A DNA stretch of 64,000 nt from Myxococcota bacterium (GTDB lineage Bacteria; Myxococcota_A; Polyangia; Nannocystales; Nannocystaceae): positions 96,001 to 160,000 of the forward strand of contig JBCCHT010000019.1 in the NCBI GenBank assembly GCA_039028615.1. Reading direction: 5' to 3'. Within the stretch, counting starts at the first letter, position 1. The number at the start of each line of letters is the position of its first letter. Below, piece by piece: positions 804 through 61,577 of this stretch. The notes under the pieces are model-generated. The model was given only the letters and a program-made list of their open reading frames with translations. It did no database searches and was not told the DNA's origin. Position numbers and translations under genes: made by a program.

Positions 804-1529
804 TCACGACGGCCGGCAGACGTAGCCGAGCACATCACCCAGCTGCGCCCGCTCGACGATCTCGAAGCCATGACGCTCGAGCAGCAGCGGCATTTCCATG
901 GGAAAGAACTGACGCAAGGCCAGCACCATCTCCACCGGCTCGCGGTCGTCCTCCATCGAGCGCGTGGTGGTGGTAATGGTGAGTACCTGCGTCAGCGGCG
1001 AGTACTCGATGCGCTCCGTCGCCCGCCGCACTCCGCCGTCGTCGGGATCGCGGTACCACGGCACATCGCTCGTGCTGCCCAGCAGCGAGTTTGGATCGGG
1101 GATCGAGACATCGAAGGCGAAGATCCCCTCCGGCTCCAGGTGGGCGCGCACCCGCTGCAACACGGCCCCGAACTCCTCGAGCCCGTGGTGATGCGCCATG
1201 CCGTTGAAGGGGCAGAGGATGGCATCGAAGCGCTCGCCCAGCTCGAGGGCTCGTGCGTCGCCCTCGACCAGGCGCAGCCCCTGTGCCTGCTCGGGGGGCC
1301 CTTCGGTCAGCGTCTTCGCCAACGAAGCCAACATCGGCGCGCTGAGGTCGACCCCCACGACACGGTGACCGCGACGCACCAGCGGCAACGCCACCCGCCC
1401 GCTGCCCACGCCGAGCTCCAAGATCCGCGAGCGCCCCTCGGTGATGCGCATATAAAACGGGAGATCCGACCCACGCCCGTCGTGAAGCATCCGGTAAAAC
1501 GAAGGATGCTCGTACATCGAGTCGGTCAT
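804..1529 (-). CDS. Class I SAM-dependent methyltransferase
   Basis: ILELGVGSGRV, VVGVDLSAPML and GDAR motifs. Confidence 0.9.
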   Translation of the reverse strand: MTDSMYEHPSFYRMLHDGRGSDLPFYMRITEGRSRILELGVGSGRVALPLVRRGHRVVGVDLSAPMLASLAKTLTEGPPEQAQGLRLVEGDARALELGERFDAILCPFNGMAHHHGLEEFGAVLQRVRAHLEPEGIFAFDVSIPDPNSLLGSTSDVPWYRDPDDGGVRRATERIEYSPLTQVLTITTTTRSMEDDREPVEMVLALRQFFPMEMPLLLERHGFEIVERAQLGDVLGYVCRPS

Positions 1530-51210: not shown

Positions 51211-51576
51211 TCAGCCGATGCCCCCCAGCGCGCCCGCGATCACCACGAGCAGCACCGCGATGAGCAGCGCGGCCAAGAAGAACTTGGCGATGATGGCGAT
51301 GACCGAGATCGTCAGGCCCAGCGCGGCAATGCGGACCGGCTCGCGGCGCGCCAGCGCGACGATGCCCGACAACGTCCCCAGGATGCCGAACACGAGCGAC
51401 GCGAGCAGGAAGGGGTCGTCCTTCGGCGTCTCGAAGAAACGCTCGACGACATCACCGCTGAGCAAGACCCACAGGGCCAGCCCCAGGGCGACGAGGCCGA
51501 AGCCGAGGCTGCTCCAGGCGGCATAGGGCTTGGCGTCGGGTTCGGGGCTGGGCTGGTTCATCGGCTCGTCTCTCAT
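51211..51576 (-). CDS. Small multi-TM membrane protein
   Basis: Hydrophobic helices; ATGA overlap with the sheath gene stop. Confidence 0.65.
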   Translation of the reverse strand: MRDEPMNQPSPEPDAKPYAAWSSLGFGLVALGLALWVLLSGDVVERFFETPKDDPFLLASLVFGILGTLSGIVALARREPVRIAALGLTISVIAIIAKFFLAALLIAVLLVVIAGALGGIG

Positions 51577-53120
51577 GATATCTGGGTCTGCTGGGAAAAC
51601 CGAAGGACCACGAACTCGGCCGGCCTGACGGGGGCGATGCCGACGTCGAGGATCAGCACGCCCTGCGCGCGGGTCTGTGGCGGGTTGTTGTTCTCGTCGA
51701 CCGTGACGAAGAAGGCATCGCTCGCCTTTGTCCCCCACAGCGCCCCCTCCTGCCACAGGCCGGTCAGGAAGGAGGACACATCCGCGTGCAGCCGGGCCCG
51801 GGTTCGCTCGTCGTTGGACTCGAAGGCCACCCACTGCATGCTCTGCCGAATGCTCTGCTCGACATACAGCACCAACCGGCGAACGTTGACGTACACCCAG
51901 TCCAGCTCCCGAGACAGCGTCCGAGCGCCCCAGATCACTTCACCGTAGCCCGGCATAGTGCGCAGAGCATTGACGCCCTCGGGATTGAGCCGCTGCCCCT
52001 GCTCGTCGGTCACGTCGGTTTCGAATCCGCTCGCCAGCTGCAGCTGGCCATCGGTGACACCCGCGGGGGCCTTGTAGACCCCGACGTTGGTGTCGGTCGC
52101 CGCATAGCGTCCCAGCACCATGCCATCGGCCGGCACCAGGAGTGCCCGAGACGTCGTCGGGTGCAGCTGCCAAACCCAGGGGTAGTAGAGCGCCCCGAAG
52201 CCGGAGTCGAGCGGCTTCGCCCCGGGGCCGTAGCGCCCTTGCCGAAAATGCAGCACCTCGTCGACATCGAGGCCCGAGGGCGACGCGACCACCAGGAACA
52301 AACGCTGCGACTCCTGGCAATAATCCAGGGCGTCTCGGATGAGCGCCCCGTGAGCGGCCGAGTCGGCCTTGCCGTCCCCATCGACCGTGAGCGGAGCGTC
52401 GGGCAGGGCCAGCAGGCTGATGTCGTGGAACTCGTCGAGCGTTCGCACGGATTTCGACACGTCGCCGTCGGGCTCGGTGCCCCCGCTCAGCGTGGCCTCG
52501 CGCGAGTCCTCGGCAAGGGCCGCTTCCAAGCTCTCGACGCGAACGAACATCGACGTGTCGGTGACCTTCGCGGCCGCCAGGGCACCAGAACCACCGTCGA
52601 GCGCGTGTGATTCCAGCACGGTGTAGTCCTTGCCATCGTGAGCAACGGTCGGGCACCCGTTGCGTCGAGCGAACTGCGCCATGCGCCGCGCCGACAGCCC
52701 GGCGTCGTCCGCCTGGAGCAATGATGTCTCGACCAGGACGTCCAGCGAGGTCGTCGGTCCCTCGCCACTGAGCGAGACGCTCAGTGCATTGCCCCAGACT
52801 CCGGGCCCAGACGCGGTGACCTCGAACGCTCCCACCGTCGCCCGGGCCGCGGCCCCGTTCCCGTCGCTCGAGCGGACCACGTAGCAAATCGCTCCTCCGC
52901 TCGCGAAGAAGCCGTAGACCGCCCACGCGGTGAAGCTCGACCACCCAAGACCGCCGAAGGTCCGCGTGAACTCGTTCCAGCTCGTGACCAGGGTCGGCGT
53001 GTCCACGGGGCCGCTGTGTGTCGCGCCCACGAAGGCGGCCACGCTGGTGCTCGCGCCTTGGATCATGGTCTGCGATGGCACTTCGCTGATGTAGACGCCG
53101 GGGTACGAGGGACTCACCAT
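51573..53120 (-). CDS. Contractile tail sheath protein (eCIS/phage-like), orphan
   Basis: YPGVYISEV, STSVAAFVG, GALYYPW, KAPAG, LNPEGVN, WGARTL, YVNVRR, GIAPVRPAEFV. Confidence 0.92.
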   Translation of the reverse strand: MVSPSYPGVYISEVPSQTMIQGASTSVAAFVGATHSGPVDTPTLVTSWNEFTRTFGGLGWSSFTAWAVYGFFASGGAICYVVRSSDGNGAAARATVGAFEVTASGPGVWGNALSVSLSGEGPTTSLDVLVETSLLQADDAGLSARRMAQFARRNGCPTVAHDGKDYTVLESHALDGGSGALAAAKVTDTSMFVRVESLEAALAEDSREATLSGGTEPDGDVSKSVRTLDEFHDISLLALPDAPLTVDGDGKADSAAHGALIRDALDYCQESQRLFLVVASPSGLDVDEVLHFRQGRYGPGAKPLDSGFGALYYPWVWQLHPTTSRALLVPADGMVLGRYAATDTNVGVYKAPAGVTDGQLQLASGFETDVTDEQGQRLNPEGVNALRTMPGYGEVIWGARTLSRELDWVYVNVRRLVLYVEQSIRQSMQWVAFESNDERTRARLHADVSSFLTGLWQEGALWGTKASDAFFVTVDENNNPPQTRAQGVLILDVGIAPVRPAEFVVLRFSQQTQIS

Positions 53121-53159
53121 CGTCCCCGATCGTACGCACCGCGGTGCGGCGGAACCACG

Positions 53160-53192
53160 AAAAAGCCGGCCGCGGTCGCCCGGGCCGGCTTT
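53160..53192 (-). terminator. Intrinsic terminator after metK
   Basis: AAAGCCGGCC..GGCCGGCTTT stem with T5 tail on minus strand. Confidence 0.8.
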
Positions 53193-53247
53193 CATTCGGC
53201 GCTGCACGGCCCGTGAAGGGCCGCAAACGCGATTGAGGACGTGCTCC

Positions 53248-54411
53248 CTAGAGCTCGGCCTTGAGGGCGTCGACGCGATCGCGGCGCTCCCAGTTGAAGC
53301 CGGCCTCGTCCTCGCGACCGAAGTGGCCGTAGGCCGCGGTGTTGCAGAAGATCGGCTTGAGCAGGTCGAGCTCGGCGATGAGGCGACCGGGGCGGGCGTC
53401 GAAGTGCTTGTCGACGATCTCGCTGAGGCGCGCGTCGGGGACCTTGCCGGTACCGAAGCTCTCGACGCGGATCGACACGGGCTTGGCCACGCCGATGGCG
53501 TAGGCGAGCTGGACCTCGCAGCGGGTGCAGAGCCCGGCGGCGACGAGGTTCTTGGCGATGTAGCGCGAGTAGTACGCGGCGGAGCGGTCGACCTTGGAGG
53601 GGTCCTTGCCCGAGAAGGCACCGCCGCCGTGACGACCCATGCCGCCGTAGGTGTCGACGATGATCTTGCGACCGGTGAGGCCGGAGTCACCCATGGGGCC
53701 GCCGATGACGAAGCGACCGGTCGGGTTCACGAAGTAGTTGGTGTTCGCGTCGAGGAGGTTCGTGGGGATGGTCGGCTTGATGACCTCCTCCATGATGAAC
53801 TCCTTGAGCGTGTCGTAGCTGACGTCCTCGCTGTGCTGCGTGGACACGACGACCGCGTCGACGCGCTGCGGCATGCCGTCGTCGCCGTACTCGACGGTGA
53901 CCTGGCTCTTGCCGTCCGGGCGAAGGAAGCTCTCTTTTTCCCGCTTGCGCACGTAGGTGAGCCGCCGGGTGAGCTTGTGCGCCAGGCTGATGGGCATCGG
54001 CATCAGCTCGTCGGTCTCGGTGCAGGCATAGCCGAACATCATGCCCTGGTCGCCCGCGCCCTGCTCGTCGGTGTAGACGCCCTTGCCGTCGACGCCGAGG
54101 GCGATGTCGGGGCTCTGGGCCTCGAGGGCCACGAGCACGCCGCAGCTGTCGGCGTCGAAGCCCATCTCCGAGCTCGTGTAGCCGATCTCGCGGATGGTCT
54201 TGCGCACGATCTCGGGCAGGTTGACGTAAGTGCTGGTCGTGACCTCGCCCGCCAGGTTGACGTAGCCGGTCTTCACCAGGGTCTCGCAGGCGACGCGACA
54301 AGTGGGGTCTTCGGCGATGATCGCATCGAGGACCGCATCGCTGATCTTGTCGCAGATCTTGTCGGGATGGCCTTCGGTTACGGACTCGCTGGTGAACAGG
54401 CTGCGCGACAT
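53248..54411 (-). CDS. metK: S-adenosylmethionine synthetase
   Basis: [44 protein letters not shown]. Confidence 0.97.
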
Positions 54412-59697: not shown

Positions 59698-59783
59698 CGA
59701 TGCGTTCCGGCCATGGACGCAGCTCGCTGACCGTCGATGGACATCGACGAGCACTGAGCCGAGTGCATGACCGGAACGCATCG
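59698..59783 (-). other. Long imperfect hairpin (86 nt)
   Basis: CGATGCGTTCCGG(C/T)CATG 18-nt inverted repeat enclosing CGTCGATG/CATCGACG; mismatches read as G-U on minus strand. Confidence 0.8.
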
Positions 59784-59784
59784 C

Positions 59785-60340
59785 GCGGTGAGTCGTGCTC
59801 GGGTCGCGGAGTTGAACCGCTGAGCTTTAGCCCACAGGCCGAAGGCCTGCTGCCCTACCCAGGCTGCCCTAGCCACGACTCACCGCCGTGCCGTCGCAAA
59901 CCGATTCCACCGACCATGCCGGGGGTGTTGCGTATCGAAGGTCGTGATGAATCGGTTCGTTGTTGGTCTTCACGTTTCCCATGAGGGGATCACTGTGCTT
60001 TCTGGTCCAAATGGACCGCTGAGTTCGCAGGTTCCGGGCGTCGCCCGGAGGTCTGTGCAAGTCCAGTAGATTCATGGTTGGGTTCTTCTAACGGGTTAAG
60101 ACGTCGGAAATCGTTAATCGGTTCCCTCACATCCGTTTTTTAACCATTGGAAGATCTTCAACAATTTGCTTGGTCCCCCTGATGCATAGGCAATGGTAAC
60201 CCCGACATCCGGCCAACCGGATGCATTGAAAGTTCACCCTACAGGGGGCCCAGGGCCCACACAGGTCAGTTTACGCCCGACGAACTCCTCTTTGCCGTAC
60301 TCCTCCTCGTTGGCTGGTTGCACAGGATGCACGGCGACCG
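59785..60340 (-). ncRNA. Candidate large structured ncRNA of unknown family
   Basis: Low GC, no credible ORF, nested long-range helices, 5' end pairs beside the tRNA-like domain, AT-rich promoter-like tract just upstream. Confidence 0.55.
59793..59873 (-). ncRNA. Non-canonical tRNA-like cloverleaf
   Basis: Acceptor GCUAGGG/CCCGAGC, D arm GCCU-GGGUA-GGGC, arm GCAGG-CCUUCGG-CCUGU, variable hairpin, T arm GCGG-UUCAACU-CCGC, end ACGA. Confidence 0.65.
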
Positions 60341-60437: not shown

Positions 60438-61577
60438 TCAACCGGGGTGGAGCAGGCCTTCGCCCATGTGGACGAGGTCTTCGAGGGTCGACGGCGGAGG
60501 GTCACGGCGTTCGACGACGGCGACGGGAACCTGCGGGTAGCGCTGCCGCAGGTGCTCGAGGATCCGTTGGCCACGGTCGGCTTGTCGGCGGGCGCCGTCG
60601 TAGGCCGACCGCAGAGCACCCATGGCCGCGTCGGCTTCGGCCTCTCCCACGTGGGCGACCACCGTGGGTCGCACCTGCGCGTCGACGGGAGCCTCGGGCA
60701 AGGTGGGCAGCACGCGATTGAGCACGATGCCGTCGACGTTGAGCCCTCGCTCGGCGATGACATCGATGAAGCCCTCGGCCTCGCGCGCGGAGAAGTCGGT
60801 GGCCGCGGTCGCGAACACGGCCCCGGTCTCCTTGGAGCGCATCAGCGTGGCCACATCGCCCGCCCGACGACGGAACTCGCCGAGCACGGCGGAGAACTCC
60901 TTGAGGAAGGCCCCCAGCTCGCCGATGAAGGAGCCGCCGCCCATCGACTCGAGGGTCTTGAGCAGCACGCCGCCGCCCAGCCCCATGAGCTTGAGGCCGA
61001 GGCGTCCGGTCCCGGCGAGGAAGCGCCCGGCCGGGTTGTTGATGAGCTCCTCGATCCGGGAGGGCGCGTCGATGAAGTCGAGCGCGTTGGCGGTGGGCGG
61101 GGTATCGAGCACGATGAGGTCGTAGCGCCCCTCGGCGTGCAGCATGTGGACGCGGGCGGTGGCCGCAAACTCGAGCGCCCCACCCAGGTGCTGCACCGTC
61201 GCCTGGTAGATGGGGTTGGCGAGCATGCGCGCGGCGGCGGCGGTGTCCTTGGAGTAGGCCCGTACGATCTCGTCGAACACGCGCTGGGTGTCGAGCATCA
61301 GGCAATCGAGCGAGATGCCCCCGGGCGCCTGCACGGGCACGATGCTCCCCGCGGCGCTGCCTTGGGCCGGATCGAGCCCCAGCGCCTGCGCCAGGCGGCG
61401 GGACGGATCGATGGTCAACACGAGCACCCGTCGGCCCCCCGATGCAGCGGCCAGACCGAGCGCCGCCGCCACCGTGGTCTTCCCCACGCCGCCCGGTCCC
61501 ATGCACAGCAGGACCCTGCGCTGGGGGGAGATCTGGAGCCGATGCCCGGCGTTGCTCACAGCCGCGGCTTTTACCAC
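60438..61577 (-). CDS. ArsA/GET3-family ATPase
   Basis: GPGGVGKTT, TIDPSRRLA, LDTPPT; start may be 61559. Confidence 0.9.
   Translation of the reverse strand: MVKAAAVSNAGHRLQISPQRRVLLCMGPGGVGKTTVAAALGLAAASGGRRVLVLTIDPSRRLAQALGLDPAQGSAAGSIVPVQAPGGISLDCLMLDTQRVFDEIVRAYSKDTAAAARMLANPIYQATVQHLGGALEFAATARVHMLHAEGRYDLIVLDTPPTANALDFIDAPSRIEELINNPAGRFLAGTGRLGLKLMGLGGGVLLKTLESMGGGSFIGELGAFLKEFSAVLGEFRRRAGDVATLMRSKETGAVFATAATDFSAREAEGFIDVIAERGLNVDGIVLNRVLPTLPEAPVDAQVRPTVVAHVGEAEADAAMGALRSAYDGARRQADRGQRILEHLRQRYPQVPVAVVERRDPPPSTLEDLVHMGEGLLHPG

Follow-up and report, generated by a model that had tools for sequence, protein, structure and literature searches.

A probable non-decoding tRNA mimic within a longer predicted RNA unit in one genus of Nannocystaceae (Myxococcota)

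A tRNA-like element on the minus strand of a Myxococcota bacterium (Nannocystaceae) is very probably real rather than a product of decay: a conserved, non-decoding tRNA mimic that forms part of a longer unit. It lies in a stretch of 64,000 nt, hereafter the window (GCA_039028615.1, JBCCHT010000019.1, positions 96,001–160,000; the source genome is G000). An initial annotation of the window had proposed a non-decoding mimic that serves as a processing signal, a decoy or a protein scaffold, and comparison of eight members supports a non-decoding mimic under selection. To judge from their sequences, the four-arm fold and the elbow bases have been conserved while the anticodon and the CCA end have been lost, a long stem ties up both acceptor strands, and the mimic is accompanied by a predicted promoter, a leader motif and a 3′ hairpin. 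No description of this RNA family was found in Rfam or in the literature open to search, which includes few subscription papers; it is an undescribed, narrowly distributed RNA family.

In the window, the tRNA-like core (59797..59873, minus strand) is a cloverleaf with canonical arm order, D-loop GG and the T loop UUCAACU, as first described. Its acceptor (59873–59867 with 59803–59797, one A·G mismatch) encloses, all on the minus strand, a D arm (59864–59852; GCCU-GGGUA-GGGC), an anticodon-like arm (59850–59834), a variable arm with a 4-bp stem (59833–59822), a T arm with a 4-bp stem (59820–59806) and an unpaired GA (59805–59804) that links T stem and acceptor. The variable arm and the GA had been left out of the first description; the deviations that it listed (C8, a 5-nt D loop, the 4-bp T stem, the acceptor A·G, ACGA after C72) are all real, and the anticodon loop can indeed be closed, the arm then folding as 7 bp plus UUC.

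The acceptor is continued by an extension stem, of which the 5′ strand (59874..59886, minus strand) is paired at p >= 0.97 at 12 of 13 bases and the 3′ strand (59785..59797, minus strand) runs over the place of the CCA end, here ACGA. The proposed 13-bp complement between 59886–59874 and 59797–59785 is perfect, but it counts C59797 twice; G59873 and G59874 compete for this base (p 0.49 versus 0.51), and since it cannot serve both helices, one G must bulge out, which leaves a stem of 19 positions. Two alternative conformations had been suggested at 59882–59886, of which the second is not supported: these bases pair with 59785–59789 at p >= 0.995 in both folded contexts, and the sole upstream complements available for a competing helix (60360, 60335) lie 5′ of the conserved promoter.

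Folded as 102 nt, core and extension together reach z = −4.64 (0 of 200 shuffles as good), and the 76-nt core by itself z = −0.20 (71 of 200). Perfect inverted repeats of at least 13 bp within 150 nt number 289 in the 12.27-Mb genome, or ~1.5 per 64 kb, and the two that occur in the window are both in this element. Because such repeats are not rare and the core on its own is no more stable than shuffled sequence, the window sequence by itself is no more than suggestive, and it is comparison that supplies the proof; the same fold statistic would suit a decayed tRNA or an integration-site scar without function, a reading to which we return below. ARAGORN, run as the initial annotation had proposed for a tRNA finder, stayed silent on the element at its default threshold, and the best Rfam match was tRNA-Sec at 28.2 bits, below the gathering score of 47; RNAs of this sort are missed by tRNA finders and by Rfam. 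The element is present once in its own genome (BLAST and both models applied there), and a repeat element was dropped as an explanation on that ground.

Homologues were found in all six genomes of the window's genus and on two metagenome contigs, which gives the eight members (G000, the window copy; G046, G047, G048, G049, G050; and the contigs L099 and L102). The search started with BLAST over 73 family genomes, which returned one homologue, and the flanking genes led to three more; a first model was built from these four and the window copy. Members outside the model that found them scored 58.2 (G049), 88.3 (L099) and 52.9 bits (L102), and a member is carried by the record of a named species, Paraliomyxa miuraensis (L078). 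Model searches of the other 67 family genomes gave three matches (E ~0.005), all ordinary tRNA-Thr, and a second model run on a phylum sample of 150 genomes gave one, an ordinary tRNA-Thr, results in which ‘not found’ does not equal ‘absent’, since just 27–68 candidates are scored per genome and weak homologues may escape. The ‘order’-level search covered the same 73 genomes as the ‘family’-level one. Pattern matches in the genome collection (n = 26) comprised five members without new sequence, one match in L064, three tRNA-Tyr and 17 judged to be chance, and those in the metagenomes (n = 24) comprised the two members L099 and L102, two tRNA-Tyr and 20 that were set aside. The viral collection yielded no match with two patterns, and a looser pattern scan was at chance level. 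The L064 match (L064:2414-2572, Paralimibaculum aggregatum; 37–39 bits to the family models) is a tRNA with CCA whose anticodon loop is closed to a tetraloop, in tandem with tRNA-Gln and 5′ of an SPFH/HflK-like gene, and represents a separate, independent instance of a tRNA without an anticodon.

Across the eight members, 94.5% of 183 stem cells are paired, with the D, anticodon and T stems at 100%, the variable stem at 96.9% and the top five acceptor pairs at just 77.5% in the automatic alignment. Seven of the 23 pairs are altered on both sides. This level of covariation is reached by none of 500 shuffles, a test inflated by relatedness, which the shuffles ignore and which leaves the eight sequences without independence; slid controls pair 33–54%. 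The elbow bases of canonical tRNAs (D-loop GG, T loop UUCRA) are present throughout, the T loop reading UUCRAYU in every member (UUCAACU in seven, UUCGAUU in one). Neither U8 nor A14 is retained (positions 8–9 read CA, GA, AU, UU or UA), so that an L shape is unproven. The D stem has 3–4 bp, the T stem 4 bp followed by 2–3 unpaired bases, and the variable arm ranges from 12 to 33 nt. Beyond the acceptor, the flanks of each member form 14–29 predicted pairs; the long stem is thus general in the family, but it is irregular and unrelated in sequence among members, and the perfect 13-bp helix is not supported as a family trait.

The anticodon arm varies, in keeping with the original suggestion that homologues might keep the elbow and vary this arm. 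It is 16 nt long in four members, 17 in one and 19 in three, and on a 6-bp stem its loop holds 4 nt in four members (UUCG, CACG, CAAG, CUGC), 5 in the window copy and 7 in the remaining three. CCA is absent from all eight, the 3′ end being paired. As the arm varies and CCA is absent family-wide, the UUC ‘anticodon’ of the window copy is incidental, and the Glu identity once read from it is accidental. A working tRNA-Glu or allo-tRNA, charged and decoding after processing, would account for the UUC in the window copy's 17-nt arm, and the 4-bp T stem with its variable arm resembles that of 8/4 allo-tRNAs as far as the accessible text on these goes (PMC5389517). We nevertheless regard a decoding role as most improbable: seven of the eight members have 16- or 19-nt arms, the single 17-nt arm has C33 in place of U33, none has CCA, and the genome has tRNA-Glu UUC and CUC elsewhere, within a broad tRNA set and beside an ordinary tmRNA on contig C16.

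Nor does any relative have an ordinary tRNA-Glu at this place, which the initial annotation had named as a possible sign that the window copy is a pseudo-tRNA. Decay would fit the narrow distribution and the position next to a horizontally spread gene. It is, however, largely refuted and in our judgement very unlikely, given the compensatory changes, the stable tetraloops that replace the anticodon, and a promoter and hairpin that are conserved though the neighbouring SIR2 proteins among the genus genomes are just 62–68% identical.

The family contains a class II tRNA-like stretch, GGCAGC(A/G)G(A/G)C, from the D arm to the anticodon, together with a long variable arm. Its pattern retrieves ordinary tRNA-Tyr genes, and among the tRNAs of the own genome two tRNA-Ser and one tRNA-Tyr have the three best mean alignment scores. 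Because the pattern recovers tRNA-Tyr and class II tRNAs score best, if narrowly, the ancestor looks like a class II tRNA, Tyr- or Ser-like; the small margins leave the exact parent unfixed. Relative to class II tRNA-Tyr or tRNA-Ser, the mimic is without anticodon, U8, U33, the fifth T-stem pair and CCA. The family would thus document a tRNA domesticated within one genus, with the elbow frozen, the acceptor end sealed, the anticodon loop turned into a tetraloop and the variable arm nearly tripled in length. The own genome also has extra tRNA arrays, partly of irregular genes, on contigs C3 (258280-258723), C23 (6428-7170) and C27 (171191-172216); the C3 array (Ser-Ser-Ser-Ser-Tyr) includes the mimic's best-scoring relatives.

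To our knowledge, few bacterial tRNA mimics are known beyond tmRNA and Y RNAs. Hallmarks of tmRNA are a G3·U70 acceptor with CCA, a tag frame and the absence of a D stem; the mimic has a D stem, no CCA and no conserved frame. It is not a canonical tRNA either, showing neither the 7/5 acceptor branch, nor a free NCCA, nor a 17-nt arm with U33. A retron msr–msd was likewise rejected, as the sole RVT_1 gene is on another contig and the eight folds share no common outer helix. That gene (contig C16, L144:1255-2589), the genome's single reverse transcriptase gene, is retron-like by eye and unlinked to the mimic.

Comparison with allo-tRNA and YrlA, both suggested at the outset, placed the mimic in neither class. 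All eight members share with 8/4 allo-tRNAs a 4-bp T stem and a long variable arm; these tRNAs, by the accessible part of their description (PMC5389517), have an 8-bp acceptor that makes a 12-bp branch, a long D stem with a tetraloop, and an anticodon loop, and inactive 8/4 and 9/3 forms have been proposed there as regulatory RNAs. The mimic has an unpaired linker, an irregular acceptor and a D stem of only 3–4 bp, is without a conserved anticodon loop, and sits inside a longer unit. YrlA (RF02553) is also an uncharged tRNA mimic with a D/T elbow on a long stem, and in the account available to us (PMC4201824) it is permuted (T before D), has a closed acceptor and a GNCGAAN0-1G motif, and lies within 4 kb of Ro60. 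In the mimic the arm order is canonical, with the T arm not before the D arm, which speaks against a Y RNA; the GNCGAAN0-1G Rsr-binding motif occurs in just three of eight members, at unrelated positions; and the YrlA model has no match in the window stretch or in six homologue loci.

The statement that no Ro60 gene is near holds for the locus, within 4 kb, but two TROVE genes do exist on other contigs of the own genome, and one is accompanied by its own YrlA; the genus has a separate YrlA beside Ro60. Ro60/Rsr might still bind the mimic in trans. TROVE genes are on other contigs in four of five relatives too; none was found in G048, the assembly of which is 72% complete. YrlA matches adjoin TROVE genes in three relatives. 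At L048:4680-4980 (C16) there are an RtcR-like gene (assigned from ORF and position), rsr and a YrlA match of 61.3 bits (gathering score 69); an Rsr-binding-type motif is present in two short repeats upstream. Immediately 5′ of a second, divergent TROVE gene is a tRNA-like element (L049:3787-4002, C44) with a 62-nt anticodon-loop insert (RF00005, 46.2 bits), after which comes a long hairpin. It is possibly an undescribed Y-RNA-like partner; its layout, tRNA-like element and then 3′ hairpin, is that of the family described here, and the family model does not match it.

The coordinates originally assigned to the mimic span just ~1/4 of the unit in which we infer that it sits, of about 400 nt (~395 nt in the window). 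All eight members have GGGAACC-N15-ACGTCT 169–255 nt ahead of the D arm; in the window the −35 box GGGAACC is at 60120..60126 and the −10 box ACGTCT at 60099..60104 (both minus strand), the former invariant and the spacing between them fixed, and transcription is predicted to start near 60092 (minus strand). From the general consensus we take GGGAACC/ACGTCT to be a probable ECF-type promoter. The −35 element of E. coli RpoE is GGAACTT, according to the accessible section of PMC8103513. A similar motif is found 5′ of trxB and of an htrA-like gene in the own genome, and a relaxed version precedes the trxB orthologues in three of five relatives and the htrA-like orthologues in three of five, which suggests that the RNA belongs to a heat or thiol stress regulon; no cognate ECF sigma factor was found among at least 150 candidates. 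About 12 nt 5′ of the −35 box, at 60153-60136 (minus strand), a possible regulator site, a TTC..GAACGAAGAA-like box, is shared by six of the eight members and is degenerate in the window copy and L102. The trxB leader contains a conserved stem-loop in five of the six genus genomes (L124 ~1190-1290, minus strand; L127, L129, L130, L131), whose closing strands are GCACGGGG / CCYCGUGC and whose loops are CU-rich; it had no Rfam match in the two loci scanned and is a candidate regulatory RNA of the same regulon.

The predicted leader (59887..60092, minus strand; its ends are approximate) has variable hairpins and one conserved motif (59980..60017, minus strand), made up of a 5-bp hairpin, a Shine–Dalgarno-like purine run of the AGAAAGGAG type (degenerate in the window copy, AGAAAGCA), an AUG or GUG, and a second AUG 10–11 nt on. 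That the run and both starts are kept in seven of eight members speaks for a small-protein mRNA, in which the Shine–Dalgarno-like motif and the second AUG would start a short peptide, with the mimic and the hairpin serving as 3′ stability or attenuation elements that are unfolded by the translating ribosome. A weak third-position excess in the second ORF of G046, G050, L099 and G049 (uncorrected pN/pS 0.50–0.85) points the same way and leaves a leader peptide possible. For the pairs that involve G000, G047, G048 or L102, however, pN/pS is 0.78–2.29, scattered around 1; the ORFs that open at the first start have 7–36 aa and those that open at the second have 37 to more than 100 aa, with the frames varying in phase as well as in length and all three phases represented at the D arm; and two ORFs in the intergenic region have no Pfam match. 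The differences in length and phase rule out a conserved protein across the element, and a small-protein mRNA seems to us unlikely.

Downstream of the mimic is a long hairpin (59698..59783, minus strand; ~30 bp, z = −8.70) with a conserved GGCUC/GAGC core. Among six members, 12 of its 30 predicted pairs are compensatory; the other two members end at contig ends. A model of it finds one locus per genome and a sole outside match, in G041 (E = 1e-4), without a tRNA-like neighbour (best 12.5 bits). The hairpin is likely the 3′ end of the transcript and possibly also the terminator of the convergent SIR2-like gene. In G049 inserted genes part the unit from both neighbours and leave it intact, and in L102 a different gene lies upstream, which argues that this is a transcription unit of its own.

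The reading that we favour, tentatively and with confidence close to evenly balanced, is that the mimic is an uncharged tRNA-elbow scaffold carried by a non-coding RNA that stress induces. On this view the ancestor of the genus would have taken over a Tyr- or Ser-like class II tRNA gene and turned it into one structural domain of a free-standing, ~400-nt non-coding RNA, which a stress ECF sigma factor would transcribe and which would share its inducing stress with trxB and htrA. Because the paired flanks would bar maturation by RNase P and the CCA enzyme, the mimic would stay in the long RNA. There the D/T elbow could be a docking site, or a stabilizing scaffold, for a protein that reads the tRNA shape, and any effect on translation or on other RNAs may come from the purine-rich leader motif. 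A precedent, by analogy, is tRNA-Other of B. cereus, a pseudo-tRNA that in the accessible portion of its report is proposed as a structural element of a longer stress-regulated RNA (PMC3399842). This is the closest concept to the mimic, with which it would share a place in a longer stress-type RNA and does share proximity to acquired DNA and a narrow group; going by that same partial description, against which the mimic was set, tRNA-Other retains its Trp anticodon and has near-identical homologues, whereas the mimic has no anticodon loop, its acceptor is held within a long stem, and its homologues covary deeply.

A more specific proposal, which we think rather improbable, is that the stress RNA pairs a ribosome-binding element (the anti-Shine–Dalgarno-pairing run with its AUG) with an unchargeable mimic and acts on the translation machinery, for example by retaining, under heat or thiol stress, 30S subunits or factors that bind the elbow. 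If true, it would be a tmRNA-like two-part design without aminoacylation.

RNase P recognizes the tRNA elbow, and a somewhat more credible, if still doubtful, alternative to the scaffold is a mascRNA-like processing signal, in which a cut by RNase P or RNase III, at the tRNA-like domain and long stems, sets a defined end for the leader RNA or for the 3′ hairpin RNA and the released piece is the effector. Both long helices are conserved, and RNase P cuts M. smegmatis YrlA despite its closed acceptor, as stated in the accessible text of PMC4201824. Against such a signal, the T stem has only 4 bp with 2–3 unpaired bases, and the length and internal loops of the acceptor vary, so that no fixed 12-bp ruler is kept; leader and trailer are moreover paired in all eight members, which should hinder RNase P. 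The eukaryotic mascRNA and menRNA are, like the mimic, tRNA-like modules of longer non-coding RNAs and are not aminoacylated, but in the available part of their description (PMC10424219) they are excised and CCA-added, whereas the mimic comes from bacteria, has a large variable arm and keeps its flanks paired. Since a promoter and a regulon are predicted and a named species, Paraliomyxa miuraensis, is a carrier, the expression, processing and partner of this RNA are directly testable.

One candidate partner is the convergent SIR2-like gene (PF13289; 58608..59675, plus strand), which is as limited to the genus as the mimic: both are in six of six genus genomes and in 0 of the 67 other family genomes. 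The two are side by side in L099 as well, and members of the SIR2 family with about 45% identity occur scattered through distant taxa, all of which would fit one acquired defence cassette in which the RNA is an antitoxin, a sensor or an antisense regulator. We hold this to be quite unlikely, since the gene and the mimic are on opposite strands without overlap, are separated by an inserted gene in G049, and are linked to defence only by a weak PADLOC match of the protein (E = 0.005, to ThsA), and since pattern scans found no mimic beside the SIR2 genes of other taxa. The viral collection contained no relative of the SIR2 protein. Upstream of the unit, and outside it, is an ArsA-like ATPase gene that is found family-wide (60438..61577, minus strand). 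Elsewhere in the window, an acyl-CoA-binding protein gene (PF00887; 58264-58557, minus strand) lies between a hisC-like aminotransferase gene and the SIR2-like gene, and a lone phage-tail-sheath-like gene (51573-53690, minus strand) adjoins a metK-like gene.
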